Positions 14,507 to 33,682 of a stretch of 64,000 nucleotides of DNA are shown piece by piece; position 1 is the stretch's first letter; every line of letters begins with the position of its first letter. The stretch comes from Ignavibacteriales bacterium. Its GTDB lineage: Bacteria > Bacteroidota > Ignavibacteria > UBA10030. Position numbers and translations under genes: made by a program. The notes beneath the pieces are model-generated. The model searched no databases. It was not told the origin of the DNA and saw only the letters and a list, made by a program, of their open reading frames with translations. Location of the stretch: NCBI GenBank assembly GCA_016186715.1, contig JACPLA010000100.1, positions 157 to 64,156 on the forward strand, given 5' to 3'.

Positions 14507-14971
14507 TTACGGGTAGAATCGAAATGCCAGCCCCCCCTCCAGACCAACACCGACAACGGGAGAAAGAACGAGGGCCGGGCCGAGTTCAAAGGCCAGGTCG
14601 AACGGATGCGAAGGGAAGAGGTAGTCAACGCCGAACATCATCCTCAACCCCAAGCCGAGCTGATTCGACTCGAACCTCGGTCCGCCGACGTTTGAAGAAC
14701 CGATAAACACGCCGGGACCGTAATAGAAAGGGACTTCATGCCTGTTGAAAGCATTAGAATGAAACGAGTAGTCGGCCCCAACGGTAAGTCCTCCGAACCC
14801 ACCGCCCACGTATCCATGAATCGCCTCCCGGGATGAATTCCAGTATTTAATTGTCAGTCCAGTCGGAGCTCCGATAATAACGCCGACGCCGAGCTTCTTT
14901 GGTTGCGCACCGGCCTGCTTGCCGGCAAAAACCATGACACCCACCAGCACCACCATCATACTTCTCCTCAT
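14507..14971 (-). CDS. Small outer-membrane beta-barrel hypothetical protein
   Basis: Signal peptide MRRSMMVVLVGVMVFAGKQAGAQ, a Gly-rich beta-strand pattern and a terminal aromatic (...AFRFYP). It overlaps the uvrA stop by 4 nt. Confidence 0.55.
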   Translation of the reverse strand: MRRSMMVVLVGVMVFAGKQAGAQPKKLGVGVIIGAPTGLTIKYWNSSREAIHGYVGGGFGGLTVGADYSFHSNAFNRHEVPFYYGPGVFIGSSNVGGPRFESNQLGLGLRMMFGVDYLFPSHPFDLAFELGPALVLSPVVGVGLEGGLAFRFYP

Positions 14972-17841: not shown

Positions 17842-18240
17842 AAGGCCGAAACGGAAAATTAGCGAGCATCTCGCCGAAATGCAACCGAAAAAAAGAAGAG
17901 ACTCATACGGATAACTGCAAAGGACACCGAGGAGGCACAGAAGGACAGAGAAAGCAGTAACGCTTTTTTTTATGGGTGTTGCACCGACGTAGCTCACAGT
18001 TCCGCGGGCTCGTGTCTTAGGACGTGCGCGGAATGCCTCGGGAATTCAAATCCGTCTGAACTCCTCCCCAATTCAAATCCCCCGTATTTGACGATGAATG
18101 TTGTCGGTTGGGCGACTGATGCGTTCTCGGAGCGGAATATCCGCCTTCGTCTGCCCGAGGCAGACTCCGTCGGACAGGTCATTCCGACCTACACCCCAGA
18201 ACATGCAACGTTCATTATTCGATCTTTTCAAGCAATACCG

Positions 18241-18275
18241 AATGTTGAATGTAGAGTGTAGAATGTAGAATGTGG
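18241..18275. repeat. Tandem heptamer repeat, 5 copies (AATGTTG AATGTAG AGTGTAG AATGTAG AATGTGG)
   Basis: Directly visible in the sequence. It sits between the end of the PorU-led operon (18336) and the uvrA upstream region. Confidence 0.7.
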
Positions 18276-18335
18276 GTCTTGTCCTGAATCTGAACTCATT
18301 TGTGGAATCGTTTGAAGTTTTTCCAAATTCAAACA

Positions 18336-19229
18336 TCAAAAAGAAATGGTTGCGCGGGCGGTCGGTACAAACTCGACGAATCCGAACGGTCTCGCTCTCG
18401 GTTCAAGATGAACTTCGATTCGAAGGGAATTGTTGAACTGGGCTGCACTCCACGCTGCATCCAATGCGCTGAGAAGATGATTCGCCACAAGAACAAAGCC
18501 GGCCGTGCGGGCAACGTTGTAAAAATCGTTTGCCCTTCCCCTCATGTCGCGATATTCCCGGAACCGCATGGTAATCGACGTGAGATGATCCGGAGGTACG
18601 CCGATGAAATCCTCCCATCCAGGATTATACTGCTGATACTTCCCGATCAATTCATAATACTGCTGATCGGGACGCACGGGGAGCCGATGACTGAATCCGG
18701 TGCTTGCCCGTCTTCCGATGATCTCTTCGCATGCATTCAACGCCGCCCAATCCACTCGTTCCCACGGTTCCCCTGTACTTCTGATAATAATTGGCGGACA
18801 CGGAGGGGACCCGGGTTCTGCCAACTGGTCGTAATTATCTTCGATCCATTGTGCGTACTTGACCACAGACCAGTACTGATCGGCGTATTGCTCGAACTGG
18901 GCGGTCTGCCGATCTCCTTTGGAATCATACGTTGCATAGACGATCCAGAGAGCGACCTCAGCCCCAAAGAACGCCATGGACCGCCAGTAGCTCTCCGCGT
19001 AAAATTCGCCGGCCCCGGGAATAACTGCAGAATAGGCGGCCGCACGTAAGGGAGACTTCCGCTGGGGAGACGGTACGGCGGGCGGAATGGAGTCCTGGAA
19101 CTCAAGCCGCACATTGGTCAGCAAATCCAATCTGAGGTTACCGGTCAGCGGTTTGATTTCAACGTCGGATTGTGCCATCGCCGTCTGCCCGACGACAGTA
19201 ACCGCGACTACCAGGACAAAATTCTTCAT
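18336..19229 (-). CDS. Secreted hypothetical protein (last gene of the PorU-PorV operon)
   Basis: Signal peptide MKNFVLVVAVTVVGQTAMAQ. Motif YSAVIPGAGEFYAESYWRS. It starts 2 nt downstream of the preceding gene. Confidence 0.6.
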   Translation of the reverse strand: MKNFVLVVAVTVVGQTAMAQSDVEIKPLTGNLRLDLLTNVRLEFQDSIPPAVPSPQRKSPLRAAAYSAVIPGAGEFYAESYWRSMAFFGAEVALWIVYATYDSKGDRQTAQFEQYADQYWSVVKYAQWIEDNYDQLAEPGSPPCPPIIIRSTGEPWERVDWAALNACEEIIGRRASTGFSHRLPVRPDQQYYELIGKYQQYNPGWEDFIGVPPDHLTSITMRFREYRDMRGRANDFYNVARTAGFVLVANHLLSALDAAWSAAQFNNSLRIEVHLEPRARPFGFVEFVPTARATISF

Positions 19230-19231
19230 GA

Positions 19232-22200
19232 TTATCGAATCCTTCTCCGGGTCAGATCCCCGAGTTCAAAGCCAAACAGCACATTAAAATAGAACCGCCA
19301 CTCTTTTCCATACGAAACGTCCACTCCGCTGAATTGCCTCGTGAACCGGTCGAACCCGTACGCTCCTGAGAAAGTAAAGCGCGTGGGGTATGCATAGAAC
19401 GAGAACGACTCGAGGCGAAGCTCGAAACCGGCGTCTTTTTTCCAAGCGTTGATATCCGGGACAGTCCCCGTCCACGCATTCCCGAAGTCCGTGAAGACCG
19501 AGGCGTAGAGTTTGGTGAAATAGAATTGGAGCAGCCTGAAATCCACGCTCCTCGTCAGCGGAAAGCGATAGCCAAGATGGACGGTTGCCATAGAATTTCC
19601 CCCGAGGGCATAGTACGGATACCCCTTCATTCCGAGCATCCCGCCGGCATAAAAATCGAAAAAGGAGTCGACGGTTTTTCCTAATATTCCGCCTCCCCGG
19701 ACACCCAGTGCCAGCCTATGGTGGCGGAACGGCAGGCTCAGATATTCGTTCCAGGAAATCTCGGCCCTCTGGAAGCTGAAGTTGACGTACTGCGGAACCA
19801 GGACACCATCTTCAACCTCGAACTCTCCTTCCGCATTGAACTTATTGAATTCGTATCCATAACGGAGCATCACCGACCGTCCTCGTGGATTGATCTCATC
19901 ATCGACCCCCGGAAGAATTCCATTGAAGCCCAGGCGCGCCGTGAGCGCGTTTCCAATGAAATACACATTTCGAAACCCAGCAACGAGCGAGTTATCGTTC
20001 GGATTAACGAACGATCCGATGTCTGCGCTGTAGCGGCTCAAGACATAACGAAGCTCAAGCTGCATCTTTTCATTCAGCACAGGATGCCGTGCAACGGCAT
20101 CGAACTCAAAGAGGTTGTAGGTGATCTCAGGCGTGATGGTGACCGGCGACGGGTCAAGGGTGAAGCTGGAAAAGGTTTTTCGCGAAATGCTGTACAGCTC
20201 GAGGGAGAGGGCGGGTTCAAGTCCTTTTCTCCAAATCCAAGGCAGCCGATCCCGATATTCAAGAATTACAAATAAATCTCGTTCGAAGTTCCGATTCAGC
20301 GCCGCTCCAGCAAACAAGCTGAGTTTGTTCAGAACATCGGACGACACCGCATACAGGCCCGGTTTCACGATGTCGATTCCCTTATTCTTCGGATTGTAAT
20401 TATCGACGCGGATAAACGGAATCAAGGAAAGACTCGTAAAGACATTCCGATAGGGACGCTCTTCTGCCGTCACGGTTTCGTTCAAACGCTCATTCCCCAA
20501 CATAACCGGCGGAGAGATGTTCTTTCCGGTTGCTGCAATCAGGCGAGGAAGTTGTCTGTCGATCGGTTTTCGAGATGAAGCCGGAAGGAGCGCGATCTTG
20601 TATCCGTCCGAGGTGTAGGTTGCAAATACCAAATCGCCCGGCGCGTTGACGGTAGGGAGGAACGCTCCTCCCAAAACATTTGTGATCTGCTCCGAGTCGC
20701 CTGTCTCAAGATTATAGGACCAGATATTGAAAATCCCCGTACGGTCTGAAGAATAGTAAAGGACTTTCCCATCGGGAGCAAAGAAAGGATTGCGACAATC
20801 GCCTTCGGCCGCGATCAACCGCATGTCGCCCCCGCCCTCATCAATCAGCCCCAGAGACTGACGGTGTCCGTCTGAATACCCAAACGCAATCGACGATCCA
20901 TCCGAAGACCAGACCGGGGTATAAACCTGTTCTCCATTCACGAACCCTGTGATCTTCCTGAACCCAGTACCGTCCGCCTTTGTGATTCCGATATTCATCG
21001 TTCCATCAGAACCGAAGGCAAACACGAGCTTGGCGCCGTCAGAGGAGAGACGCGGATTTTGGGCCCGTAGTCCTTCCGTGAGCCTGGTTTCTTCTTCCTC
21101 AGCAATGTCATACCGGTACAGATCATAGAAGCGAGACCAGTGAGGATTGTTGTGGGTTGCCTTGGCGTAATACAGCGCTGTTCCATCGGGAGAAAAGGAA
21201 ATTGCCGACCGAACTCCCTCCACGATCCGTTCCGATTTCTTCTTCTTTACATCATAACGATAGACAGAACTCTGCCCGAAGTAATCTCTTCCTTTATTCG
21301 AGACATATGCGACGGCGGTTCCGCCGGGAACAAAGACAGGATGGAAATTGCCGAAGCCTTCGGTCTCGATGAGAATTCCTTCGTTCCGGGTTTCCCCCAC
21401 CCGCTCCTGAACGGCCCGATATTGACTGATCCTGGTTTCCTTCCATCGCCGATACACTTCCAGGGCCGGAATTCCCAAGACAGATTCAATCGCGCCGTCG
21501 ATCGTCACACGGTGAGCGGAACCCAGCTCGCGGGAGATTTCCCGGAGTCTCTCAGCGCCATACTCCTCCGCAATGAACTGCACAATGGAAAAGCCTGCAT
21601 TGTAGGCCGATTCATTTCCGAGACTGTTCTTTCCGAAGACCGCCATCTCCTCCCATGAAAGCGGATTCCCATCGATCATGTACATCCGGAGTATCATATC
21701 TCTATGGCTGTCCCAGTAATCGAAGCTCAGTTCCGGATGATTATACTGGGCCGTTCCTTCGGCAAACCAGCTTGGAACGATAAAGGCCGAAAGAGGGTAA
21801 GACACAAGGACGTTCGGAAATCCGTAGAGCACGTCGGGCCGCCGTTCAGCTTCATATCCGAACCACTGAAAATAGACTCCCGGAATCTTTCGCCCCAACT
21901 TCATTGCCGTTTGGATCTGAATGATGTGCGTCAATTCGTGGGTGATGACATTCCAAAGCCAAGGGTGAATTCCCCTCAGCTCGAAATCCATGGAGGAGGC
22001 CCAGACCTCGATTTTGTTATCGTAGAAATACGCCGCGCCGTTGGAGTAATCGTCGTGATCGCGAAGAATGATGCTGATTTTTTGGTCCGGTTCGTGATGA
22101 TACAGTGTGGTAATGGGACCGTAGACCGCTTCCGCAATCTCGGTACTTAACCTGCCGGTTCGTTCCGCTCCTGTGTGGAAATGGACCAGGAAATGCTCGG

Positions 22201-22324
22201 TTTCGAGCGTTTTCCATTCCAGTTCCGTGTGGGGAAATTCTGCTGTCTGACCGGCCAGAGAATGGGGAAGTGCAGCAAGGAGAGGGCCGACGAGAACCAA
22301 TCGTTTCACAAGCACGCTGATCAT
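19232..22324 (-). CDS. Large secreted multidomain protein: N-terminal HExxH zincin-like domain + TolB-like (PD40) beta-propeller + C-terminal Omp85/surface-antigen-like beta-barrel
   Basis: Signal peptide MISVLVKRLVLVGPLLAALPHSLAGQ. HELTH motif at 21926-21940. Repeated PD40-like blades (SFSPDGTALYY, PRLSSDGAKLVF, PVWSSDGSSIAF, PFFAPDGKVLYY). The C-terminal ~350 aa form a Gly/aromatic-rich beta-strand domain. Confidence 0.7.
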   Translation of the reverse strand: MISVLVKRLVLVGPLLAALPHSLAGQTAEFPHTELEWKTLETEHFLVHFHTGAERTGRLSTEIAEAVYGPITTLYHHEPDQKISIILRDHDDYSNGAAYFYDNKIEVWASSMDFELRGIHPWLWNVITHELTHIIQIQTAMKLGRKIPGVYFQWFGYEAERRPDVLYGFPNVLVSYPLSAFIVPSWFAEGTAQYNHPELSFDYWDSHRDMILRMYMIDGNPLSWEEMAVFGKNSLGNESAYNAGFSIVQFIAEEYGAERLREISRELGSAHRVTIDGAIESVLGIPALEVYRRWKETRISQYRAVQERVGETRNEGILIETEGFGNFHPVFVPGGTAVAYVSNKGRDYFGQSSVYRYDVKKKKSERIVEGVRSAISFSPDGTALYYAKATHNNPHWSRFYDLYRYDIAEEEETRLTEGLRAQNPRLSSDGAKLVFAFGSDGTMNIGITKADGTGFRKITGFVNGEQVYTPVWSSDGSSIAFGYSDGHRQSLGLIDEGGGDMRLIAAEGDCRNPFFAPDGKVLYYSSDRTGIFNIWSYNLETGDSEQITNVLGGAFLPTVNAPGDLVFATYTSDGYKIALLPASSRKPIDRQLPRLIAATGKNISPPVMLGNERLNETVTAEERPYRNVFTSLSLIPFIRVDNYNPKNKGIDIVKPGLYAVSSDVLNKLSLFAGAALNRNFERDLFVILEYRDRLPWIWRKGLEPALSLELYSISRKTFSSFTLDPSPVTITPEITYNLFEFDAVARHPVLNEKMQLELRYVLSRYSADIGSFVNPNDNSLVAGFRNVYFIGNALTARLGFNGILPGVDDEINPRGRSVMLRYGYEFNKFNAEGEFEVEDGVLVPQYVNFSFQRAEISWNEYLSLPFRHHRLALGVRGGGILGKTVDSFFDFYAGGMLGMKGYPYYALGGNSMATVHLGYRFPLTRSVDFRLLQFYFTKLYASVFTDFGNAWTGTVPDINAWKKDAGFELRLESFSFYAYPTRFTFSGAYGFDRFTRQFSGVDVSYGKEWRFYFNVLFGFELGDLTRRRIR

Positions 22325-22989
22325 AGAACCACGTTGACCCTTGTCAAGAAATTTTCCTCAACGTTCACGAGAATGCTTTTCACTGTGGTTCCCGCCTTCA
22401 GCTCAAGCTCAACCCGTCGGCCGGTGGCGTGGAGGCCCAAGAATTGATCCGTCAGGCTGTAGAGCGGTATCCCCGTCTGTGCCAAGGGAAGACTTTCCTG
22501 AGGAATGATGAATCGCCCGTTGACGTCCGACGTCGCTGAAACCGTCCCGTGAACAAGAACGACATACGACGCTCGTTCGGATCCTCCGGCGTGGTACTGA
22601 ACCGTGTACTTTCCGCCGGCAGCCTCGGAACCATCTGCCAGGCGTCCGTCCCAAAGAACCGTGATGACCGAGTCGGTGACGAGGCCCGAAAAAACGGTCC
22701 GGATGATGCGGTTGGAGGCATCGACAACCCGGACCTCGACAGACTCGCTGGAGGCCCGGAGAGCATAGGAACGCGACGGCTCCGGAGTGTTGCTTTCGAA
22801 AATGAATTCATAGAACAACCGGATTTGAACCTGTGCTAACGGTCTCCCGAGCCCATCTGAGACCGTTCCTTCAATTCGAAACCCGTTAATCGGTTCTGTG
22901 TCTGTTGAAAGGGGAATCTCTCTCTTGCAACTCCAGTGTACCAGGAGCAACGCCCAAACAGTCCCTCTGACAAGAGCCGATGTTCTCAT
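22321..22989 (-). CDS. Putative lipoprotein with CarbopepD_reg-like and FlgD-Ig-like beta-sandwich segments
   Basis: N-terminus MRTSALVRGTVWALLLVHWSC, a hydrophobic signal ending in Cys. GTVSDGLGRPLAQVQIRL resembles the carboxypeptidase regulatory-like fold. VLWDGRLADGSEAAGGKYTV resembles FlgD-Ig/CTD-like motifs. It is translationally coupled on both sides. Confidence 0.55.
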   Translation of the reverse strand: MRTSALVRGTVWALLLVHWSCKREIPLSTDTEPINGFRIEGTVSDGLGRPLAQVQIRLFYEFIFESNTPEPSRSYALRASSESVEVRVVDASNRIIRTVFSGLVTDSVITVLWDGRLADGSEAAGGKYTVQYHAGGSERASYVVLVHGTVSATSDVNGRFIIPQESLPLAQTGIPLYSLTDQFLGLHATGRRVELELKAGTTVKSILVNVEENFLTRVNVVL

Positions 22990-22994
22990 AGAGC

Positions 22995-25900
22995 TTACTT
23001 CACAACGGCGATCTTAATAACGACGGATTCCCGCTTCCCCGATCCCTGTGCCTCCAGCCGGGCCAGGTAGATTCCACTCTGAATGTCCTGCACATTCCAG
23101 GTCAGCTCTCCGTCGACGCCTCCGGCTGATTCTCCGCGCAGCTCGGTGATGGAGCCCCCTGCGACATCAAAGATCTTGACCGATATACTCGCGGGTTCCG
23201 TCGTATAGTAACGGATACGGGTCAGCGATCCGTACACAGGGTTTGGCCAGTTGTAGACGCGGTCTTTCGGCAGGAATTCCGTTGAGAGAGGAGACAAGAC
23301 AAGTCCAGAGCCGTCATAGAAGTTGGAATGGCCGGCGTCATTAAGAAATCCCGACCAATGCTTTCGCAGTGCTCCCCACGAGACGGCTGACTCCCACGCC
23401 TGAACGGCCCCGGATGGGCCTGCGACAATCAATCCCAGACTTCCCGATCCTGATTCATAGAGAACCAGCGATCCGTCCCCGGGCGACGCGGCCTGAAAGG
23501 GAAACGACGGAAGCACGCTCCCGTTTCGATCATACCCGAACACGGTTCCGGAACGTGTGAGACAGACCAGGTCCTGATAACCGTTGCCATCAACATCGAT
23601 GACAACCGGCGTTCCCACAAACACATTTCCTCCGGAGAACTGCTTTGGAAAGAAATCCAGCGTTGTCCCGTTTTCGTTGAAAGCATACAGACGTGATCGG
23701 GCAACGACCACAATATCGAGACGACCGTCGCCGTCGACGTCGGCCACAATAATTTCCGAAACCGTGTCGGAAACCGAGATCTCAAATCGTTGATCCCCGG
23801 TTGGATCGTAGGCGGCAACCCTGTGACCGCCCTCCTCCGCCACTGCGAAGATCGCTCCGGTCTGCGAGTTTCCCGCAGCAAGAAGCCACGGTCCTCCACC
23901 TCCCAGTTGGGTCTCATTTTGATTGCGGAACAGCGACCCGCCGCTTGTGAACGTGACGGAGCCATCGGCGCTTGTCCCGCGGGCCAGCCGTTTTACCGCG
24001 CCGCGTCCCGTCGGGAAGAAACTCTGCACCGTTCCATCCAAGCCGACCTTCCAGACGGTCCCCGATTCATCCCCGACAACGACGAGCGTTGTCCCTGCAG
24101 AATCGACCATCATCGGTGGCGCCGTGATCCGATTCGGAACAGCGACAGTGCGAAGACCGACGCTGTCATAGACTCCATCGCCTGTGTTGTCCCACAGCTC
24201 CCAGATCCGCAGCGTGCTGTCCTCCACACCGGCCACAACCGTGCGCGCCGACTCAAGTCCGGCCAGAGGAAACTGACTCGGGGACGCTGAGAGGAGACCC
24301 GCTGGATCCGTGACACCGGATGAACCGTTTTTCTGAAACACAAAAATCCCCTCGGCCGATGGTACGAAAACAGCGGAGTTCATGACAGTCGGATTGCCAA
24401 GCTGCGAGGGCGATCCAAGAGACATCGTCAGCGGCCCCGGCCGAAAATCTCCGGACCCCCGGTCCACCGTCATGACTGCGCGTACAGATTTTGCAGAGAA
24501 CTCTTTCATAGAGATGAAGCTTCGTGCTCCCGCGTTGCTGTTGCTCGACGGAATCGAGGTCTCGCTGAACTCGTTTCGATACACGGGTGCCGGGTTCCCG
24601 GCGAACCACGCATCGGGGGGCCAACCGTTCTCCGTCCCGCTCCCGGCCTCAAGAAACTCATATGGCACCCCGATGTCCTGCGAACCGTCGGCCTCTTCCA
24701 GATCAACGCCTCGTCGTTCCGGATCTGCGTTCACCGAGTTGGAAGCCAGGCCGGCCTCAATGATATCTTCATCGACATGCCAGATCAAAATTCCGCCCCC
24801 TTCGAACGATTGAAGAGACATATCGCCCGAAATCGCCCAATCGAAATCCTCGACGTCGATCAGGGACCCCGTGATCCCCCTGACATCGTTAAAGAAAAAG
24901 CCAGTCGTGTCGCGTTCGTAGTGCCGCGTGACGGTCACTCCGTTTTGAATAAGAGTCACCATCTGACCGTTCCCAAGCGGATCCCGGCTCCTGTTTTCAA
25001 CGAGGAAATACTCCCTGTGTGTTATCGGGATCTTGTAAATCGTGTCGTTGCCAGCTGTCGTCAGGCCGACGGCCGGAAGAATGAGCGATGAAGCCCCCGC
25101 GGCCGGGATGGTGGGGGTGGTCCAGCCGAGGTAAACTTTTTCCCATGCTGAGGGTTCAGGTGGAAACAATCCGCTGTAAGCGAAAATCGCCGCTCCGTCC
25201 ATCAGGCCGAATTGACCAATCCCTGATCGGCCCGTGCGAGTGTCGAAGAGATCCGGCAACCCAAGGAAACTCCCAAATGACGCGGCAAGCAGCCCGTTGA
25301 TGCTCAGCTGGAGAGTATCGCTTCTGCTTCCCGAGGTGAATACGCGTGTTTCGGTTTCAGGAAGAATCATAGAATTCGTTATAAAGAACGACCCGCCGTT
25401 CACAGGGATTCCGGGGAACGCAGGGTCGTTCAAAAGGTCTCTCATCGACGCGAGGTTCAGCGTGACGGAGGGAATGTCTAATGGTGTGGGATCAAATCCA
25501 AAGATGCCGACCAGATCGATGTCCCTGCCGACGCCCGCATGAAATATGATGAAGCCTTCGTATTGCGAAAACGGGAAGGCGGGGTTCAAGTCATTCGCCG
25601 CCGACCAGCTGTCAACAACGAGCCGCGCCAGAGGTTCGTTTGGTCCTTCTCTTGGGGGGGAGTATACAGCCATGTTTTCGGCAAGGGTCACGACAGGACC
25701 AAACAGGTCGGCGCTGATGAGAACCTTGCCGTTGGAGACTTTTCTGAAGTAATTCTCAAGAAAGCGCAGTTTACCGGTGAAATACGATGCATCGTGAGGA
25801 GGCGGATCGATTTGATCCGGGTTTCCCGGGGCGGCAAACGTACCGTCGCCGCTGGTGCGGGAATCCGAATCGCTTTTGAATTCGACCATAAGAGCGAGGA

Positions 25901-26045
25901 CACGAATCGTATCCTCAGCCTGGAGCCGGGGGGAAACAGCGGAGGGAGAAGAAAGCCGCACCCTCGAAAGCGGGCGTTCCTTCGGTTGGGAAAGACCGCC
26001 TGTAAACAAGACAGATAACGCGAAAGCAACAGAAAAAACCTTCAT
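22995..26045 (-). CDS. T9SS cargo: M6/InhA-like pseudo-metallopeptidase (HExxH replaced) + FG-GAP/VCBS beta-propeller repeats + T9SS C-terminal sorting domain
   Basis: Signal peptide MKVFSVAFALSVLFTGGLSQ (ATG at 26043-26045). M6 landmarks are present: GLLAASFGSFLGLPDLFDT aligns to the family's HEFGHxLGLPDxYD block, and SAWEKVYLGW, YFLVENR and ILIWHVDE also match. FG-GAP repeats VADVDGDGRLDIV and VIDVDGNGYQDLV. C-terminal domain ...SVKIFDVAGGSITELRGE...GIYLARLEAQGSGKRESVVIKIAVVK. Confidence 0.75.
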   Translation of the reverse strand: MKVFSVAFALSVLFTGGLSQPKERPLSRVRLSSPSAVSPRLQAEDTIRVLALMVEFKSDSDSRTSGDGTFAAPGNPDQIDPPPHDASYFTGKLRFLENYFRKVSNGKVLISADLFGPVVTLAENMAVYSPPREGPNEPLARLVVDSWSAANDLNPAFPFSQYEGFIIFHAGVGRDIDLVGIFGFDPTPLDIPSVTLNLASMRDLLNDPAFPGIPVNGGSFFITNSMILPETETRVFTSGSRSDTLQLSINGLLAASFGSFLGLPDLFDTRTGRSGIGQFGLMDGAAIFAYSGLFPPEPSAWEKVYLGWTTPTIPAAGASSLILPAVGLTTAGNDTIYKIPITHREYFLVENRSRDPLGNGQMVTLIQNGVTVTRHYERDTTGFFFNDVRGITGSLIDVEDFDWAISGDMSLQSFEGGGILIWHVDEDIIEAGLASNSVNADPERRGVDLEEADGSQDIGVPYEFLEAGSGTENGWPPDAWFAGNPAPVYRNEFSETSIPSSNSNAGARSFISMKEFSAKSVRAVMTVDRGSGDFRPGPLTMSLGSPSQLGNPTVMNSAVFVPSAEGIFVFQKNGSSGVTDPAGLLSASPSQFPLAGLESARTVVAGVEDSTLRIWELWDNTGDGVYDSVGLRTVAVPNRITAPPMMVDSAGTTLVVVGDESGTVWKVGLDGTVQSFFPTGRGAVKRLARGTSADGSVTFTSGGSLFRNQNETQLGGGGPWLLAAGNSQTGAIFAVAEEGGHRVAAYDPTGDQRFEISVSDTVSEIIVADVDGDGRLDIVVVARSRLYAFNENGTTLDFFPKQFSGGNVFVGTPVVIDVDGNGYQDLVCLTRSGTVFGYDRNGSVLPSFPFQAASPGDGSLVLYESGSGSLGLIVAGPSGAVQAWESAVSWGALRKHWSGFLNDAGHSNFYDGSGLVLSPLSTEFLPKDRVYNWPNPVYGSLTRIRYYTTEPASISVKIFDVAGGSITELRGESAGGVDGELTWNVQDIQSGIYLARLEAQGSGKRESVVIKIAVVK

Positions 26046-26154
26046 GACCCTCCGCCGGACTGCAACAGGATGGGAAGAACGGACCGACACCCTAGTGTCT
26101 CGACCTGCAGGACGCGGCACGATTTCTCTTACAAGGTATTTCTTAGACTCGACA

Positions 26155-27267
26155 CTAGAACGGGGATCCTTCCCACCGTATCATCAGAGTGAAGCGGAGT
26201 GTTTCTCCTAAGGGATGCTTGTCTTCAAACGCATCAATGTAGCTGAAGTCGAATCCGTACACATCATATCGGAGTCCGGCCCCGTACGTCATGAACTTGC
26301 GATTTCCGTATTGCGGATCTTCATAAAAATACCCGACGCGGAGGGCAATCAGCCTGGGTGACCCATACCAATATTCAAATCCCATGCTGGTCACAATGTC
26401 GCGCAATTCCTCACTCAACGGTTTGTCGATCCATGAATAGTACAGCGCTCTGTAAAATGGGTCTGTCTTTCCCTGGCTGTTGCGACGAACGAGCAGTTTG
26501 CTGAAATCAAGGATGTACGTCAGGTTGTTGAACTCCGACTGGATGGCATCAACTGCAAACCCGAGTCGAAAGTTCATCGGAAGGGGATCTGCCTGAGCTT
26601 CATCGATGTACGTCAGGTTCGGACCGATGTTCGAAACGTTGACACCGATGCTCAACCGATTGCCGAAATCGATATCTGTAAAAGGGATCATGACGATCCT
26701 CGGTCTGTACATCAGGCCGAGGTCGAAGCTAAGCCCGGAGGCGACGCCTTTGCCCTTCTCCTCCGCCGTTCCAAACGGAGCCAGCCTGCTGTGAATGAAC
26801 CGCACATTGACACCGAGAGCCAGTTCGTCGAAAACCATGGTAGCGTAGCCCGCAGTCAGGGCAAACTCATATCCTTTGAACCTACCGATCTCCTCAGGTC
26901 CGGTCGGGGCCGTTCGAATGAATTCGCCAAGATTGAGATATGTGAGGCCCGCCGAGATTGTCCCGTCCAGGTCAGGAACATTCTGCTTGTACACGGTATG
27001 AGCGATCCAGAGGTCTGAGAGTCCGAACCCGGGGAGCCAATTGGCATGAGACAATGCGACCTCGGAACCGGTCTGATACGCGTAACCGGCCGGGTTCCAA
27101 AACTGCGCCCACACGTCATCGGCAAGACCGGCACCCGCTTCTCCCATTCCGCTTGCCCTCGAATTCGGGGCGATGAGGAGAAACGGAACCGCCGAGGTGG
27201 ACACCTGAGCCGATATCTCGAATGTCATGACGATGAGAAGAATCGGCAGAATGATTTTCTTCAGCAT
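26155..27267 (-). CDS. porV: Type IX secretion system outer-membrane shuttle protein PorV (LptO)
   Basis: Signal peptide, then the PorV-family N-terminal signature PFLLIAPNSRASGMGEAGAGLADDVWAQFWNPAGYA. About 370 aa beta-barrel. It sits immediately downstream of porU. Start chosen at the ATG 9 nt after GGAGG; an alternative ATG is at 27276. Confidence 0.75.
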   Translation of the reverse strand: MLKKIILPILLIVMTFEISAQVSTSAVPFLLIAPNSRASGMGEAGAGLADDVWAQFWNPAGYAYQTGSEVALSHANWLPGFGLSDLWIAHTVYKQNVPDLDGTISAGLTYLNLGEFIRTAPTGPEEIGRFKGYEFALTAGYATMVFDELALGVNVRFIHSRLAPFGTAEEKGKGVASGLSFDLGLMYRPRIVMIPFTDIDFGNRLSIGVNVSNIGPNLTYIDEAQADPLPMNFRLGFAVDAIQSEFNNLTYILDFSKLLVRRNSQGKTDPFYRALYYSWIDKPLSEELRDIVTSMGFEYWYGSPRLIALRVGYFYEDPQYGNRKFMTYGAGLRYDVYGFDFSYIDAFEDKHPLGETLRFTLMIRWEGSPF

Positions 27268-27348
27268 AGACTGCATCCTCCGTGGAAACAAGGTCCCCGC
27301 GAGGGGACGGTTTTGATGATACCAGAATTATTTTCCATTTTCAATACT

Positions 27349-30300
27349 CTAGCGCAGGACCGTCAGTTTTCCGATAACTTCTTCAGAAGTACGACGATCG
27401 GAAGACCGGGTGACAACTTTGTAAAAGTACACACCGTTGGCGATCGGGTCTCCGTTCTGATCGCGCCCGTCCCAGGGAATCCGGACAAACCGGTCGACAA
27501 CGGAAAGCCCTTCTTGAATTTTGACCAGTCTGCCCGCAAGGGTATAGATCTTGACTTCGACGTCGATAGGATCCGACGAATTTCGTTGAAAGGTGAACAC
27601 CGTCGACCGCACAACAGGATTGGGGAAATTAAAGACATTGTAGATTTTCAAATCCGATACCGCGCGGACATCAAAGGCGATTTCCTCCTGAGCCGAATTG
27701 TTGTAAATATCCCATGCCTTGACCTTTAACGAGTGTCCTCCTTCCGAAAGATCCCGAAGTTGATAACGGACTTCTCCGCTCTGATACGTGTCGAGGTCTC
27801 CACGATAGAATGGGGTCAGATCAATGGACTGAGGTATTCCGCTGAGGGTGGCCTCAAGCCGGTGTCCGACACTTGCCGTCGATGTATTGATCCCGCTTTG
27901 GTCGAACAGTTTCACGAGAAGCAACGCATCCGGGGACACGACATCGCCTGACCGGAACGACTCATCATCGAGAAACACCTGCAGGAGAGGCCCCACGCTA
28001 TCGACGGCTGCCGCGGAATCTGTACCGGCGATCACGATGTTCTCCGTATAACCCACGGCATCGGATGAGGAGGACCGGGCATAGACGGAAATGCGGGCCC
28101 GGTTGTTGTCATACGAAACGTCCTTGGGAATGGGAACTGTGGCGCGGAACTTCCCCTGGTTGACGCTGATCTCACCGCGATACAACAGGCTGCCATTGAC
28201 TTCAAAGGAAAAATTCCCCCATTCCGGGACGAACACCCTGCGTTTGGAATCGAACATTTCCAGGAGCGCTCGTCCGGTGAAATCGCCCGACGGAGATCCG
28301 TCCGGTCGGAGAACAAGCCCGTTGATTTCGATACGACTGAGCGCGCTCACCTGGACGAGAGTCGATAACGGAGCGCCGTCGATGCTGTCCACACCTGCAA
28401 ACGTCGCCGGGAGATTTAGTCTCATGGTAGGATCAGCAAAGAGATGGTACTTAATGTCGTTGACACCGGAAAGTATTTGTTTCGTCCGGTACATGGCATC
28501 AACGAGTCTCCGCGGTCTTCCATCCGGATCACGGGGAAACAATTGCGCATAGAGCGTGTTGTTGAACTGTGAATTCTGAAACGAATAAACAGCACGGGAT
28601 GCCGTGACGACACCGATGGCGCCCCCCTGAGCCATGGTCAGTAACAGTTCCCCTGCACTTTCTTCAGCCGGATCGTCATAGCGGGCGAAGTCACAGGTGG
28701 CCGCAACAAGAAAAAAGGGTTGGGTGTAATTTCTGAGCAGGGGCAAGCTGGCCTCACGAGTGAAAATTGCCTCGTGGGCCCAGAGCTGCGGGTTCCCGTG
28801 TCCGGTATAGTTAAGAATAAGCGTCCCATCGTTGATGGCTTCCACGATCGCAGTGTTGGCTGTCGGTTTTCGCCGACCTGCCGCGCTGTTGACCGTCGGA
28901 TACTCCACGATAAAGATCTTCTTCTTTTCCACAATTGCGGGCGTAAAACTCTGCGCCAGGACCTCGGCCTGAAGCGTGTGAATGCTCCCGTCATCCCTTG
29001 TCGAGGTCAGGCCGTCATCCGCGACGTATGTGACGCGATTGCGCCACGGCTCCAAGGGTGCGGTTGTTTCATACGCAATGATCTTATCCACCGCAGCCCG
29101 TGCCTGCCCGAGTGAATTGATCGGAAGGCGACCGATCGCAACCGAAACCTTTGTGTCGCCGGGATTCAGTATGCCCAGATGATCGTCACTGGCATAAGAA
29201 AGGATCTGAAACACCGATTCCAGCGTTTCGTAGGGAGGGATCCAGTTCCGGTTGGAGGCCCGGATGTTTTTGTAATCGTAGTGGCCGTCGCCGAACAGCA
29301 GGACATAGCGGACCGGAACGCTCCAGTTCCCTCGTGTGGAAAGAAGAAAATCCCTGACCGCCAGCGGGTCGGTGTTTCCCCCCGAATACTCATTGACAAT
29401 ATTCTCAATGTCCACAACCAGGCACGTCAAGGAATCTCCCTGTTCGCGATGGGCCGCAAGACGATCCGCTTCGGACCGAAATTCTCTGGGCGTAATGATG
29501 ACGAACTCAGCCCCCGTTGTGAGACCCTGGAGGTTTGTATTCTCCACTTTCCGGACGTTCGTCGGCACAAGGAAGCCGTTCGGACCTATGGCAAGAAACT
29601 GGCGGACGCCTCCCGCGGTCTGCGGCGACTGAAACGCGCACATTCCCGGGTCGATCGGATCGACGGTCAAATTCGTGATTCTCACAACACTGTCATGGAC
29701 GCTCACATCGAAGACATTCACGTCTCGGCTGGAAAAACCGGAGACGCGATATTCCATGACGCCCGTCGTATCGGGCGACGAGAACGCGATGAAATCATTC
29801 AGAGCCTCAAAACGTCTCCGATACAGGATTTCAAACCAATCAAGCCATCCGTTTGCTCCCGACGAATTTGCCGAAAAACTGAACCGAAGAATGCTACGAT
29901 CGTCGGGCAACGTGACCTGGCGCGAGATCGTGGTCAACGGAGCCCGATATGCCGCGTTGCCTTCGATGTCTCTTACATCGATCCCCAACGTGATGATGGG
30001 ATTCCCAAGGGGTTCTCCATTCTCCTCAATCTGGAAAGACTCGTTTGTCAATGAACGCCCCAGAAACAGAAACCGGTAGGTGGTCGGTTTCGCGGAGACG
30101 AAGCCCGGAAGGAGAGTTGTGTACACCGCCGTCCTGCTTTCGGAGTCAAAGAGCGGGCCGAGCCACTGCCTTCCCGAGTGGATGAGATTGTTCCGTTCTT
30201 CCTCCACAAAGACCTTTTCCTGAAAATCTTCGACGAACGGACCGGAGGCATTCCCGGATGCAACGGAATCCATCGACTTCCCCGGATCACCGCCAAACGT

Positions 30301-31266
30301 GAAAAAATAGGCGTTCACATCTGTATAGTGATTGATAGAATGGTTGAATGTCTTTGTCGCAGGATTGTACCGCCACCCGCGCGTCGAGGCGCCGTAGAAG
30401 AGGAGATAATCCTCCGCGTCAAACAGACCGTTTCCGTTCCTGTCGACGATCATGCGGGCAACCTCCTGGAGGCCGCCGGATGGGCGGGGCTCCGAAACTC
30501 CCTCCGGCAGCGGTCTCCCGCCGTTTCCGTAGACGCGGATGGAACCAATGTCGGACACGGCGCTCACGGCAATGCCCGCATTGATGAAGAACGATTGATC
30601 CAATTTGTAAATCCCTGTTTCTCCGATATCCATCTTGTACCATTCGCCCTGCTTCAACGGCGAATCGGGCACTTGTCTCGACGCGACCTGACGGGAAGAT
30701 CCGGCCACTGATTTGACACGGACCACCATCGCGTCGTAGCGTCTCAGGATCTGCCGTGCTTCATCGTACTGAAGGGGATAAAGCTTCAGGAGGATGGTTG
30801 ATGTCCCGCTCAATGTGGTGATCTTTTCCACTTCTGTGAGCCTTGATGGGGCGAACCCTGCGGCTCCAGAAGGTCGGCCGGAAAACACCGGTACAGCTCC
30901 GAATTCCCTTTCGTCTTCTCTTCGGAATGCAGGATACGGCGCAGGGAGATGGCCCGGAAGCTCGGTGTACCGAACATCCACGATTTCCGCTTCCCAGTTC
31001 TCGCCTTGAAGTTCCAACGGAAGCACGCGGAAGGGAATCATCGGTTGTCCGGGATCTTCCCGAGACAAGATTCCGCCGGTAAATCCAACAAAGGTGTAGT
31101 GTCCTCCCCCGGCGCCGCGGATCGCTTGCGTGAAGAACTGCGGGTGGAATTCCAACACGATTGCAGAGGCGCTGCGTTCGCGAACGACCACATCGCCCTG
31201 ATCCTGACCGACGAGGATGACAGTGGAGAGGAAAAAAACAAGAAGTATGGAGATCGAACGCTGCAT
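27349..31266 (-). CDS. porU: Type IX secretion system sortase PorU (C25 gingipain-family cysteine peptidase)
   Basis: Signal peptide MQRSISILLVFFLSTVILVGQ. C25 catalytic His/Cys blocks (NYTGHGNPQLWAHE, FFLVAATCDFARYD). Retained T9SS C-terminal domain (...KIYTLAGRLVKIQEG...GVYFYKVVTRSSDRRTSEEVIGKLTVLR). The adjacent downstream porV is the conserved porU-porV arrangement. Confidence 0.8.
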   Translation of the reverse strand: MQRSISILLVFFLSTVILVGQDQGDVVVRERSASAIVLEFHPQFFTQAIRGAGGGHYTFVGFTGGILSREDPGQPMIPFRVLPLELQGENWEAEIVDVRYTELPGHLPAPYPAFRREDEREFGAVPVFSGRPSGAAGFAPSRLTEVEKITTLSGTSTILLKLYPLQYDEARQILRRYDAMVVRVKSVAGSSRQVASRQVPDSPLKQGEWYKMDIGETGIYKLDQSFFINAGIAVSAVSDIGSIRVYGNGGRPLPEGVSEPRPSGGLQEVARMIVDRNGNGLFDAEDYLLFYGASTRGWRYNPATKTFNHSINHYTDVNAYFFTFGGDPGKSMDSVASGNASGPFVEDFQEKVFVEEERNNLIHSGRQWLGPLFDSESRTAVYTTLLPGFVSAKPTTYRFLFLGRSLTNESFQIEENGEPLGNPIITLGIDVRDIEGNAAYRAPLTTISRQVTLPDDRSILRFSFSANSSGANGWLDWFEILYRRRFEALNDFIAFSSPDTTGVMEYRVSGFSSRDVNVFDVSVHDSVVRITNLTVDPIDPGMCAFQSPQTAGGVRQFLAIGPNGFLVPTNVRKVENTNLQGLTTGAEFVIITPREFRSEADRLAAHREQGDSLTCLVVDIENIVNEYSGGNTDPLAVRDFLLSTRGNWSVPVRYVLLFGDGHYDYKNIRASNRNWIPPYETLESVFQILSYASDDHLGILNPGDTKVSVAIGRLPINSLGQARAAVDKIIAYETTAPLEPWRNRVTYVADDGLTSTRDDGSIHTLQAEVLAQSFTPAIVEKKKIFIVEYPTVNSAAGRRKPTANTAIVEAINDGTLILNYTGHGNPQLWAHEAIFTREASLPLLRNYTQPFFLVAATCDFARYDDPAEESAGELLLTMAQGGAIGVVTASRAVYSFQNSQFNNTLYAQLFPRDPDGRPRRLVDAMYRTKQILSGVNDIKYHLFADPTMRLNLPATFAGVDSIDGAPLSTLVQVSALSRIEINGLVLRPDGSPSGDFTGRALLEMFDSKRRVFVPEWGNFSFEVNGSLLYRGEISVNQGKFRATVPIPKDVSYDNNRARISVYARSSSSDAVGYTENIVIAGTDSAAAVDSVGPLLQVFLDDESFRSGDVVSPDALLLVKLFDQSGINTSTASVGHRLEATLSGIPQSIDLTPFYRGDLDTYQSGEVRYQLRDLSEGGHSLKVKAWDIYNNSAQEEIAFDVRAVSDLKIYNVFNFPNPVVRSTVFTFQRNSSDPIDVEVKIYTLAGRLVKIQEGLSVVDRFVRIPWDGRDQNGDPIANGVYFYKVVTRSSDRRTSEEVIGKLTVLR

Positions 31267-33094: not shown

Positions 33095-33682
33095 ATGCAT
33101 GAAGAGGTTGGCATTTTTTTCGACAGAGACGGAACGATCAATGTGGAGCTTGATTATATCTCGGACCCCGACAAACTGGAGCTTGTTCCGGGCGCGGCCA
33201 AGGCCATTCGGGAAGCCAACGAATTTGGAGTCAAGGTTTTTGTCATCACGAATCAATCCGGCGTAGCCCGGGGTTTGTACACGGAACACGATGTCGAGGC
33301 AGTTCATACGCGGCTCCGCAAGACACTCGCAGACCACGGCGCGCATCTTGACGCCATCTACTACTGTCCGCACCATCCCGAGTACGGGACTCCAGCGTAT
33401 AGAAAAGTTTGCACCTGTCGCAAACCGAAGACGGGAATGCTCCAGGAGGCCCGCAAATCCTTTCGGATTGACCTGAGCAAATCGTATGTCGTGGGGGACA
33501 AGTGTACGGATATCGAGGCCGGCCGCACGGCACACTGTGGCACTGTTCTTGTGCTTACCGGATATGGGGCAGCGGAGGCCGAAGATTGCGGAAAGGCAGG
33601 GGGTGCAGATCATGTGGCAAAGGACATCTATGCGGCGTGGCATTACATCAGGAAAAACATTGATCGGACACAACAGCGCTAG
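33095..33682 (+). CDS. gmhB: D-glycero-beta-D-manno-heptose-1,7-bisphosphate 7-phosphatase (HAD-IIIA)
   Basis: Motif I FFDRDGTIN, then VITNQSGVARG, CYCPHHP...C.CRKPK (zinc site) and VGDK. This is the typical GmhB layout. Confidence 0.8.
   Translation: MHEEVGIFFDRDGTINVELDYISDPDKLELVPGAAKAIREANEFGVKVFVITNQSGVARGLYTEHDVEAVHTRLRKTLADHGAHLDAIYYCPHHPEYGTPAYRKVCTCRKPKTGMLQEARKSFRIDLSKSYVVGDKCTDIEAGRTAHCGTVLVLTGYGAAEAEDCGKAGGADHVAKDIYAAWHYIRKNIDRTQQR

Follow-up and report, generated by a model that had tools for sequence, protein, structure and literature searches.

Six minus-strand genes lie between positions 18336 and 31266 of a 64,000-nt stretch of DNA (the window, analysed as a whole) from an Ignavibacteriales bacterium, all present at the coordinates given in a preliminary description, and each of the six encoded proteins carries a signal peptide. 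Read in the direction of transcription, they encode PorU, PorV, a secreted pseudo-metalloprotease (M6i), a lipoprotein, a 1030-aa protein that joins a zincin, a propeller and an outer-membrane barrel (Big1030; Big for its homologues) and a DUF5683-like envelope protein, and searches with Pfam and NCBIfam models confirmed the identities first proposed for them.

porU (27349..31266, minus strand) encodes the C-terminal signal peptidase/sortase belonging to the T9SS (type IX secretion system), with a C25 domain and a CTD of its own: the protein matches NF033707 over its full length, Peptidase_C25 included (959.3 bits, cutoff 420), the C25 domain reaches 282.5 bits with PF01364 (7.9e-84), and the CTD scores 26.4 bits against TIGR04183. 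The porU reading frame stays open further upstream to a GTG at 31326, and the signal peptide begins at the ATG at 31266. The product of porV (26155..27276, minus strand; alternative starts TTG 27291 and ATG 27267) is an outer-membrane, FadL-like, CTD-binding shuttle barrel, which scores 309.8 bits against the PorV/PorQ family model NF033709 (cutoff 90), 1.3e-33 against PF19572 and 259.9 bits, barely over the cutoff of 250, against NF033710. It reaches 86.7 bits with the PorQ model, under the cutoff of 220, and no PorQ was found in the window.

The genes had been described as packed with gaps or overlaps of -4 to +6 nt apart from a single 103-nt gap. Three junctions are indeed that tight (M6i/lipoprotein, +5 nt; lipoprotein/Big1030, -4 nt; Big1030/DUF5683, +2 nt), but there are two larger gaps rather than one: the porV-M6i gap, for which the earlier figure is roughly right, measures 34 nt with a GTG start and 106-109 nt if translation begins at 26048/26045 (GTG/ATG), and a porU-porV gap of 57-81 nt had been overlooked. 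Within this porU-porV spacer we read a GC-rich hairpin (GTCCCCTCGCGGGGAC, 27293..27308, minus strand), which could be an attenuator or internal promoter region; sigma-70-like hexamers at 27316-27344 come from a consensus-based promoter/terminator scan that is uninformative for FCB-type promoters. Rfam and tRNA scans across the window gave no matches.

The pseudo-metalloprotease and the Omp85-type zincin

In M6i (22995..26045, minus strand), the M6 (InhA-like) fold occupies aa ~45-545 and is followed by an 8-bladed propeller (aa ~555-900) and by a T9SS CTD of type A, a beta-sandwich at aa ~930-1017 that is modelled at high pLDDT and ends in IKIAVVK. The CTD scores 24.1 bits against TIGR04183 (cutoff 23), and the protein 24.9 bits against PF18962, under the cutoff of 27. 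With its FG-GAP repeats and type A CTD, M6i fits its first description as an M6-like protein with a propeller-forming FG-GAP region and a CTD. It also belongs to a family already catalogued by NCBIfam, NF052323, "T9SS-dependent M6-like inactivated metalloprotease", to judge from a score of 810.9 bits (cutoff 600), the lack of HExxH and the type A CTD. At the position of the active site (25251..25283, minus strand), A-S-F-G-S-F-L-G-L-P-D stands in place of H-E-x-x-H-x-x-G-x-x-D, so that both His and the catalytic Glu are missing and the M6 fold is kept without HExxH. The columns A255, S257 and S260 are invariant or nearly so among 119 homologues, and HExxH is absent from every distant-phylum homologue examined, KSB1 reading HQFGH; these alignments show the loss of the catalytic site to be systematic. 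Compared with Bacillus InhA (peptidase family M6; PDB 4yu5), M6i has the catalytic His/Glu/His replaced, adds the 8-bladed propeller and the T9SS CTD, and is set in a Gram-negative surface context.

Big1030 (19232..22324, minus strand) consists, after its signal peptide, of an N-terminal gluzincin at aa ~30-310, a 6-bladed TolB-like propeller at aa ~315-580, a disordered linker at 595-613 and a 16-strand Omp85 barrel at aa ~620-1017 in an AF2 model (pLDDT 81.6, pTM 0.81). The top Foldseek matches are to TolB (6e-11), the BamA barrels 7bnq_A, 9n2d_A and 7nri_A match at ~1e-6, and the propeller matches PD40 (4.8e-17, 61.9 bits) and TIGR02800 (5.7e-32); the TolB-like propeller and C-terminal barrel reported earlier are thus both present. 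No POTRA match was found in Big1030, and the barrel region matches no Pfam family even at E <=5; PF01103 is undetected in Big1030 and merely weak in some homologues. Foldseek and precomputed Pfam Tricorn_N/2nd annotations place the propeller in the TolB/tricorn-like type that gates peptidase active sites. The MKGY of Big1030 (19619..19630, minus strand), MRGY in the family consensus, falls by DSSP on the AF2 model within the long loop that joins barrel strand 11 to strand 12, and G898, Y902 and Y905 are invariant among homologues. The motif (V/I)RG(Y/F) is the loop-6 signature of Omp85 proteins.

For the zincin domain, Peptidase_MA_2 scores of 25.2-30.1 bits are under the gathering cutoff of 32.4, and a PDB sequence search with this domain alone returned nothing meaningful. 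A predicted zinc-binding and catalytic HELTH motif (H129, E130, H133; 21926..21940, minus strand) is followed by a likely third zinc ligand, E189, assigned by conservation, in the sequence WFAEG (21755-21769, minus strand), which we take to be comparable to the M1-type "WLNEG". H129, E130, H133, W186, E189 and G190 are invariant in 120 close homologues, and the 12 distant-lineage sequences aligned also keep both HExxH and W..E-G without variation, which shows that retention of the putative zinc site is systematic. As far as its residues tell, the domain meets the gluzincin (clan MA(E)) definition of HExxH plus a downstream Glu. By analogy with other Omp85 proteins, the zincin and propeller most likely face the periplasm, and the modelled disordered linker, of about 20-35 aa, could in principle thread the barrel.

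Like M6i, Big1030 falls in a class that is already catalogued, the "WD40-like Omp85" proteins of Heinz & Lithgow 2014 (PMC4104836); like them, it places a TolB-like propeller ahead of its Omp85 barrel and lacks POTRA domains. M6i and Big1030 are two of the four partners that had been described as uncharacterised. An aminopeptidase-like N-terminal domain already appears in the supplement of PMC4104836, where the proteins were proposed to resemble a BamA-BamB fusion with no further function, and that study reports no tie to T9SS genes or DUF5683. What alignment and gene order show beyond PMC4104836 is the conserved, putative HExxH...E site and the PorV/M6i neighbourhood.

Between M6i and Big1030 lies the gene for the 222-aa lipoprotein (22321..22989, minus strand), which has two Ig-like/CarboxypepD_reg-like beta-sandwich domains; the FlgD_ig match (PF13860, 4.3e-09) and a weak CarboxypepD_reg match agree with the folds first assigned to it. 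The lipobox Cys is kept in 27 homologues/loci. Many Ignavibacteria loci lack the gene and have <160 nt between M6i and Big, and it was found in none of the distant-lineage loci; confined on this sequence sample to a subset of Ignavibacteria, it is a lineage-specific accessory member outside the core.

The last gene (18336..19229, minus strand) encodes a secreted, 297-aa DUF5683-like envelope protein, whose match to PF18935 (33.4 bits against a required 26.7) is confined to aa 57-114 and takes in 58 of the 151 profile positions (2-59). Its 52 aligned homologues share a conserved LTGNLxxDL, the amphipathic helical hairpin of DUF5683 and a QQYYELIGKY domain, their C-terminal beta strands mostly finish in Phe, and all that lies beyond the Pfam match is a distinct conserved extension. 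An inner-membrane helical protein was considered and rejected, as KD hydropathy reaches >=1.4 solely in the signal peptide.

Conservation of the cluster across FCB lineages

Counts for Ignavibacteria derive from the best 80 of the species loci that encode M6i, which number at least 537. All 80 are Ignavibacteria-like, and 41 of them are species-level loci with 8 kb or more to either side. In these 41 fully covered loci (from the best 80 of at least 537), PorU and PorV lie upstream of M6i in all 41 and Big and DUF5683 downstream of it in 39, whereas the flanks are far less conserved (UvrA in 8/41, GlgA in 30/41) and the full cluster occurs without either flank in 8 loci. Two divergent Ignavibacteria with full flanks (L074 and L080), and apparently a third (L078), encode PorU-PorV-M6i without Big or DUF5683 nearby.

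Taxonomic breadth was taken from a representative search, cluster names and the encoding contigs. Of 10 contigs sampled from the rest of the FCB group, 9 carry the core PorV-M6i-Big-DUF5683-like, among them KSB1, Zixibacteria, Zhuqueibacterota and Fidelibacterota/Marinimicrobia, and the neighbours there are homologues of the window proteins by tblastn and NCBIfam. The order is PorV-M6i-Big-DUF5683 in Fidelibacterota/Marinimicrobia (L081), PorZ-TolB-like-PorU-PorV-M6i-Big-DUF5683 x2 in KSB1 (L082), PorU-PorV-PorV-M6i-DUF5683-like-Big-DUF5683 in Zixibacteria (L084) and PorU-PorV-PorV-925 aa-Big...DUF5683-Big paralogue in one further contig; Zhuqueibacterota (L083) and loci L086, L087, L088 and L089 likewise carry the core. 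Against NF052323, the KSB1 neighbour scores 637.6 (above the cutoff of 600), and those of Zixibacteria and Fidelibacterota, at 552.6 and 323.1, stay under it yet are clear homologues. DUF5683-like homologues come after Big in distant phyla with E values of 1e-17 to 1e-34. Of the 9 distant loci with the core, 5 have no PorU in the cluster, and the constant partner of the module is PorV rather than PorU.

Such recurrence in dozens of species and several phyla is far beyond chance and disposes of the concern that the synteny might be unique to one genome; it spans the class Ignavibacteria and no fewer than four further named lineages of the FCB, and judged from gene order the linkage of the extra genes to T9SS late-stage genes is shown to be genuine and to hold across phyla. 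The gene order could in theory be frozen synteny from an FCB ancestor, in which case M6i would simply be a T9SS cargo made in abundance, and Big and DUF5683 would be unrelated housekeeping proteins of the envelope. Around the cluster, the unrelated housekeeping genes rpiB, glyA and glgA keep their positions over large distances as well, a Big homologue stands alone among housekeeping genes in L085, and M6i occurs without Big in L074/L080. Moreover, an unrelated bamG-like-TPR-rpiB-glyA block beside the cluster in Ignavibacteria recurs in Marinimicrobia-like contigs, carried along by deep synteny, so adjacency alone overstates functional coupling. We nevertheless give this reading little credence, since the four-gene core is kept in the 9 of 10 other-lineage contigs while the flanking genes vary among at least four different sets. 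In most distant loci, the M6i/Big and Big/DUF5683 junctions are overlaps of 1-4 nt or gaps of <15 nt, which indicates co-transcription, and the recurrent overlaps argue for translational coupling; with the inactivation of one protease conserved beside the conserved, predicted activity of the other, it seems that the two divide the labour. At roughly even confidence, the gene orders suggest that [porU]-porV-M6i-(lipoprotein)-Omp85/zincin-DUF5683-like is inherited as an operon-like block in much of the FCB outside the well-studied Bacteroidia.

A candidate PorV-centred accessory module

In P. gingivalis, the T9SS attachment complex is PorU-PorV-PorZ-PorQ (PMC8545088, PMC5562754), and CTD-retaining surface components anchored on PorV/PorQ provide a precedent (PMC8545088). 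The cluster resembles this complex in encoding bona fide PorU and PorV orthologues side by side, an additional CTD-bearing, propeller-containing surface protein and, in some module-bearing phyla, a second PorV-family barrel. The preliminary description went further and saw in M6i a PorZ analogue and in Big1030 a PorQ analogue, forming with PorU/PorV an alternative attachment complex. M6i does bear a propeller and a CTD and universally adjoins PorV, and the tandem PorV-family genes before M6i in Zixibacteria and the one further contig recall the PorV/PorQ pairing. The equivalence fails, however, on several counts: the 16-strand Big barrel is of Omp85 type, matches BamA, has no NF033709 or NF033711 match and is not FadL-like; M6i matches the PorZ model (NF052228) in the CTD alone, at 16 bits against a cutoff of 260, and has one 8-bladed propeller on an M6 pseudo-protease where PorZ has a double 7-bladed one; and the lipoprotein is lineage-specific. 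The KSB1 cluster itself encodes a PorZ homologue, with Pfam PorZ_N_b_propeller on the full protein and 90 bits against NF052228 on the 136 C-terminal residues within the locus, so that PorZ and the module coexist there, unlike in a simple replacement. M6i as a general PorZ substitute was rejected for this reason, and we regard the alternative attachment complex as very improbable. The predicted active, Omp85-anchored zincin and the DUF5683-like protein have no counterpart in the P. gingivalis complex. Searches of the literature on T9SS/Ignavibacteria, DUF5683, PorV/Omp85/TolB and sortase clusters turned up no account of such an arrangement, as the preliminary description had supposed in calling it no described T9SS sub-complex.

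About evenly balanced, in our judgement, is the proposal that the genes form a PorV-centred T9SS accessory module in which a pseudo-protease at the surface serves as adaptor and a propeller-gated metallopeptidase is anchored in the outer membrane; the linkage itself is established, and we infer the mechanism from domain content and linkage. M6i would be exported by the T9SS via its type A CTD and would stay on the cell surface docked to a PorV-family barrel, like PorU and PorZ in P. gingivalis, where its dead M6 cleft and 8-bladed propeller may act, on behalf of the PorU sortase, as a platform to which cargo, linker or glycolipid binds. Omp85-type Big1030 would act as a membrane-anchored, propeller-gated gluzincin, most likely facing the periplasm from Omp85 topology, and together with the DUF5683-like protein might degrade peptides or stalled polypeptides derived from the pathway, such as released CTD signals and jammed or unexported cargo. 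Clearance of this kind would keep PorV and the translocon cycling, with the 222-aa lipoprotein as a presumed lineage-specific add-on. The name of NF052323 treats the family as T9SS-dependent cargo and not as a machinery component, which counts against the module; it gives no hint of the cross-phylum pairing with PorV, the Omp85-zincin and DUF5683, part of which the curators may know.

BepA of E. coli is an M48 zincin plus TPR, a BAM-associated periplasmic protease. We take Big1030 to be analogous to BepA and to tricorn/DPP-IV-type propeller-gated peptidases, presumably combining, on the periplasmic side of the outer membrane, an active zincin with a protein-interaction or gating domain, its propeller resembling that of tricorn/TolB; it differs from BepA in belonging to another zincin family and in having the protease covalently fused to its own Omp85 barrel. 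Some WD40-like Omp85 members listed in the supplement of PMC4104836 carry accessions that look proteobacterial, and the fold would then not be intrinsically T9SS-specific. Alternatively, Big1030 might be an Omp85 assembly or quality-control factor, with a BamA-like barrel, a BamB/TolB-like propeller and a BepA-like protease, which together with the DUF5683-like protein acts on outer-membrane proteins generally, or on T9SS barrels such as PorV and SprA; its place beside porV would reflect an ancestral outer-membrane-biogenesis supercluster and not cargo processing. The BamA-like barrel with its L6 motif and the BamA-BamB-fusion likeness proposed by Heinz & Lithgow (PMC4104836) are in keeping with such a role, as are BamD (YfiO) after the DUF5683-like gene in L081, L086, L087 and L088, BamG-like and DNRLRE (possible BamH) genes 2-5 kb from porU in the window, a BamG-like gene upstream of PorV in L081/L087 and the possible BAM-T9SS connection noted by Liu et al. 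2025 (PMC12611786). We nonetheless think it unlikely, though worth serious weight, since Big lacks POTRA domains, the tightest, overlapping junctions join it to M6i, a T9SS cargo-type protein, and PorV-M6i-Big-DUF5683 persists without flanking BAM genes in KSB1, Zixibacteria, Zhuqueibacterota and L089; the constant inclusion of a CTD-bearing pseudo-protease would be left unexplained.

Late type IX secretion, i.e., PorV shuttling and the removal and anchoring of CTDs by PorU/PorZ/PorQ, is known almost wholly from a few Bacteroidia. In Ignavibacteria, KSB1, Zixibacteria, Zhuqueibacterota and Fidelibacterota/Marinimicrobia, three further conserved genes accompany porV. At the level of gene content this points to a possible undescribed accessory part of the T9SS, and it provides a concrete setting, open to test, both for DUF5683 and for the WD40-like Omp85 proteins, an orphan subfamily that has been left without an assigned function since 2014. 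Cultured relatives are available in Ignavibacterium, Melioribacter and Fidelibacter, and for the Omp85 class in Rhodothermus or Caldithrix, as candidate carriers of the cluster. The division of labour between a dead and a live protease is a hypothesis that bears on the recycling of CTD signals and PorV and on the clearance of stalled cargo. In a bolder and more tentative form, which we hold at clearly less than even confidence, the module would occur in most FCB phyla outside Bacteroidia, the model organisms having lost or replaced it, and the pseudo-protease would hand CTD-bearing substrates or cleaved CTDs to the Omp85-anchored metallopeptidase. If this hand-over were true, Big1030 would be the first Omp85-family barrel dedicated to the processing or recycling of secretion-system substrates.

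Gene content and layout of the cluster

The interval 18336–31266 holds six ORFs, all co-oriented on the minus strand, and HMM scans confirmed the gene calls of the preliminary description. The genes porU (27349–31266; NF033707, 959 bits vs. a cutoff of 420; Peptidase_C25, 7.9e-84) and porV (ending at 26155; NF033710, 259.9 bits vs. a cutoff of 250) are ordinary orthologues. They are followed on the same strand by M6i, an M6-like protein of 1016 aa with FG-GAP repeats, a type A CTD and a match to NF052323 (22995–26045), the 222-aa protein with a FlgD_ig match and a weak CarboxypepD_reg match (22321–22989), Big1030, whose 1030 aa include PD40/TolB repeats and a Peptidase_MA_2 match below threshold (19232–22324), and a DUF5683-like protein of 297 aa that matches DUF5683 at residues 57–114 (18336–19229). 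All six proteins have an N-terminal signal peptide, and a hydropathy scan detected no transmembrane-level hydropathy elsewhere in them. By eye, five of the six (PorU, PorV, M6i, Big1030 and the DUF5683-like protein) carry Gln at +1, directly behind the predicted cleavage site, in the contexts VG/QD, SA/QV, LS/QP, AG/QT and MA/QS (e.g., 31195–31266 and 27205–27276). This pattern resembles the “Bacteroidetes Q-rule”, which has been described as not reaching the whole FCB group (PMC5837995).

The genes had been described as tightly packed with a single large gap. Three junctions are indeed tight (+5, −4, and +2 nt), but two spacers are not: that between porU and porV measures 57–81 nt, depending on the start chosen, and holds a GC-rich hairpin at 27293–27308, while that between porV and M6i measures 34 nt (GTG start) or about 106–109 nt. 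Apart from the number of large gaps, the original observation was essentially right.

Both flanks are housekeeping genes, with a divergent glgA upstream and uvrA ~340 nt downstream. The spacer to uvrA (17998–18335) contains a 7-nt tandem repeat (GAATGTA, 4.9 copies, 18240–18273), a perfect 7-bp hairpin without a T-run (GTCTGCC-TCG-GGCAGAC, about 18149–18165), and an 88-aa ORF (18073–18339) without a family match. The uvrA ORF as listed (14968–17997, minus strand) has a GTG start and a hydrophobic, Cys-rich N-terminal extension of ~50 residues, and the real start probably lies further downstream, e.g., at the Met of MQKSPPQKK near 17841. On the plus strand, 13348–14088 encodes a secreted protein of 246 aa; by eye it resembles a small outer-membrane beta-barrel and ends in Tyr, and it has no Pfam or NCBIfam match. 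Rfam and tRNA scans found no RNA families or tRNAs in the window.

An inactivated M6-like protein and a zincin-propeller-Omp85 protein

M6i is a member of the curated NCBIfam family NF052323, “T9SS-dependent M6-like inactivated metalloprotease” (810.9 bits vs. a cutoff of 600), and has lost catalysis: it reads ASFGSFLGLPD at the HExxHxxGxxD position of M6 proteases, with substitutions that are invariant or nearly so among 119 homologues. None of the M6i homologues in the distant loci has HExxH, the KSB1 sequence having HQFGH instead. The additional genes of the cluster had been proposed to supply parts analogous to PorZ and PorQ, and we consider such a substitution improbable. The analogy fails as M6i matches the PorZ HMM only in its CTD (16 bits vs. 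a cutoff of 260), PorZ is absent among its top structural matches, and the barrel of Big1030 is of the Omp85 type.

The AF2 model of Big1030 (pLDDT 81.6, pTM 0.81) comprises four regions, namely a mostly helical N-terminal domain (aa ~30–310), a six-bladed propeller (aa ~315–580), a disordered linker (aa 595–613), and a 16-strand barrel (aa ~620–1017). Foldseek with this model ranked TolB first (6e-11) and returned BamA barrels at ~1e-6, among them 9n2d, a structure of F. johnsoniae BAM. The loop-6 motif (V/I)RG(Y/F) is a signature of Omp85 proteins, and MKGY (family consensus MRGY), which the model places in the barrel loop between strands 11 and 12, has the position and form of this signature. 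Going by the topology of Omp85 proteins, the N-terminal domains are predicted to lie in the periplasm, although the linker could in principle be threaded through the barrel. A “WD40-like” subfamily of Omp85 proteins, which have a TolB-like propeller, was defined by Heinz & Lithgow (2014), who gave its members as UniProt accessions, listed aminopeptidase-like matches for its N-terminus in their supplement, and likened it to a BamA-BamB fusion without giving a further function (PMC4104836). Big1030 belongs to this subfamily and its architecture is not new. The listed accessions are probably from Caldithrix, Rhodothermus, Chloroherpeton, Cloacimonas, Microscilla and a few proteobacteria, and the list thus seems to take in a few members from outside the FCB group, a caveat on the linkage to the T9SS.

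Big1030 has retained its zinc site, as H129, E130, H133, and E189 (in WFAEG) are invariant among 120 close homologues and the HExxH and W..E-G columns likewise do not vary across 12 sequences of distant lineages. The WFAEG motif recalls the “WLNEG” that supplies the third ligand in M1 peptidases. From this invariant HExxH + E site Big1030 is predicted to be an active gluzincin, despite a Pfam Peptidase_MA_2 score just below the cutoff.

The Cys of the 222-aa protein lies within a canonical lipobox in 27 homologues, a sequence pattern that marks it as a true lipoprotein family. Its gene is an accessory member of the cluster, found in some Ignavibacteria but not in others (many loci pass directly from M6i to Big1030 with a gap of <160 nt) and undetectable by tblastn in the distant loci of other phyla. 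The DUF5683-like protein is conserved throughout; alignment reveals an LTGNLxxDL segment, the DUF5683 amphipathic hairpin, and a QQYYELIGKY-containing domain, and its terminal strands usually end in Phe. The label “uncharacterised” for all four partners was too broad, given that M6i is a curated family and Big1030 falls in a described, if functionless, Omp85 subfamily; DUF5683 is already known as a Pfam DUF.

Conservation of the gene neighbourhood

A profile of M6i, run against a single genome for each GTDB species, yielded at least 537 encoding loci, of which the best 80 were examined (M6i identity 35–62%). These are labelled as Ignavibacteria-type or unclassified Bacteroidota MAGs, except for three Chitinophagales/Chitinophagaceae. 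Proteins of the window were searched against the 80 loci by tblastn, and counts are based on the 41 that extend for 8 kb or more to each side of M6i. Among these, PorU and PorV lie upstream of M6i in all 41, and Big1030 and the DUF5683-like gene downstream in 39; the flanks are retained less often (UvrA in only 8, GlgA in 30), and in eight loci the cluster is complete although both flanks are missing. In the two exceptions (L074 and L080, M6i ~35% identical), PorU-PorV-M6i is kept with unrelated genes downstream. The neighbourhood conservation that the preliminary description had named as a check holds among these Ignavibacteria loci, and its core extends to other FCB phyla.

HMMER, run exhaustively against 1.84 billion representatives, returned 765 proteins at E <1e-30, many of them full length with 30–45% identity. 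Among the named members of their clusters are KSB1, Neomarinimicrobiota, and Fidelibacter multiformis, which is in culture. With a profile built from distant members, further proteins were retrieved from KSB1, Zixibacteria, Zhuqueibacterota, Marinimicrobia, and the “FCB group”. Gene neighbourhoods were examined for ten distant homologues. The order is PorV-M6i-Big-DUF5683-BamD in L081 (Fidelibacterota/Marinimicrobia), PorZ-TolB-like-PorU-PorV-M6i-Big-DUF5683-like-DUF5683 in L082 (KSB1), PorV-M6i-Big-DUF5683 in L083 (Zhuqueibacterota), PorU-PorV-PorV-M6i-DUF5683-like-Big-DUF5683 in L084 (Zixibacteria), PorU-PorV-PorV-925 aa-Big-...-DUF5683-Big paralogue in one further contig, and PorV-CTD protein-Big-~300 aa in L086, L087, L088, and L089; L085, with Big alone, is the sole such case. 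By tblastn and NCBIfam, the CTD proteins of L081–L084, L086, and L087 are homologous to M6i (E 1e-41 to 1e-130, the KSB1 protein passing the NF052323 cutoff) and their small neighbours to the DUF5683-like protein of the window (E 1e-17 to 1e-34). The M6i/Big and Big/DUF junctions in distant loci commonly overlap by 1–4 nt or have gaps of <15 nt. Therefore, the conserved core is PorV-M6i-Big-DUF5683-like, which PorU directly adjoins in Ignavibacteria, KSB1, Zixibacteria, and a fourth lineage.

Late-stage T9SS genes form an even larger cluster in KSB1, where the stretch upstream of porU in L082 (1–1509) also encodes a 741-aa PorZ homologue (Pfam PorZ_N_b_propeller; NF052228, 90 bits over its 136 C-terminal residues) and, as a separate protein, a TolB-like propeller of 310 aa (TIGR02800, 2.7e-65). 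L084 (3927–5889) and the further contig have two tandem PorV-family genes between PorU and the M6i position, each scoring higher for PorV than for PorQ and under the PorV equivalog cutoff, which could reflect a PorV/PorQ-like division of labour. The Big homologue of L085 (9001–12081) is full length, 34.6% identical, and located amid fatty-acid synthesis and cell-division genes, with no PorV, M6i, or DUF5683 within 9 kb.

Possible functions of the module

Adjoining the cluster in the window, at 33.5–39.3 kb, is a bamG-like-TPR-rpiB-glyA block that recurs in L081 and L087, both Marinimicrobia-like, where it lies directly upstream of PorV. Deep synteny around the cluster includes housekeeping genes and so is not purely functional; the presence of rpiB and glyA in this deeply conserved block speaks for synteny that is simply frozen, an explanation we judge to have little likelihood. 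The BamG-like barrel protein scores 223 bits against NF053685, just under the cutoff of 250, and its gene is overlapped by 1 nt by that of a 466-aa DNRLRE-domain protein (33486–36124, plus strand; block to 39261); the two probably correspond to the bamH-bamG pair of FCB type in Liu et al. 2025. In four Marinimicrobia-like loci, moreover, BamD comes after the module. Together with the adjacent BamG-like block, this keeps alive a role of Big and the DUF5683-like protein in BAM-type outer-membrane biogenesis, which we regard as rather unlikely overall.

An accessory role in the T9SS has, taken as a whole, an even chance of being correct. M6i would be exported via its CTD and held on a PorV-family barrel, like PorU and PorZ of P. 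gingivalis, in which the PorZ CTD is uncleaved and both proteins are anchored by PorV and PorQ (PMC8545088). So retained, M6i could act as a non-catalytic binding platform, and Big with the DUF5683-like protein would constitute an outer-membrane-anchored, propeller-gated peptidase that clears pathway by-products or stalled substrates. The preliminary description had supposed that the arrangement is not a described T9SS sub-complex, and in the literature searched we found no description of this association of four to five genes, which is conserved across FCB phyla. While the mechanism is what we infer, the cross-phylum conservation of the module is strong and directly testable, and the association gives the WD40-like Omp85 subfamily and DUF5683 a T9SS context.
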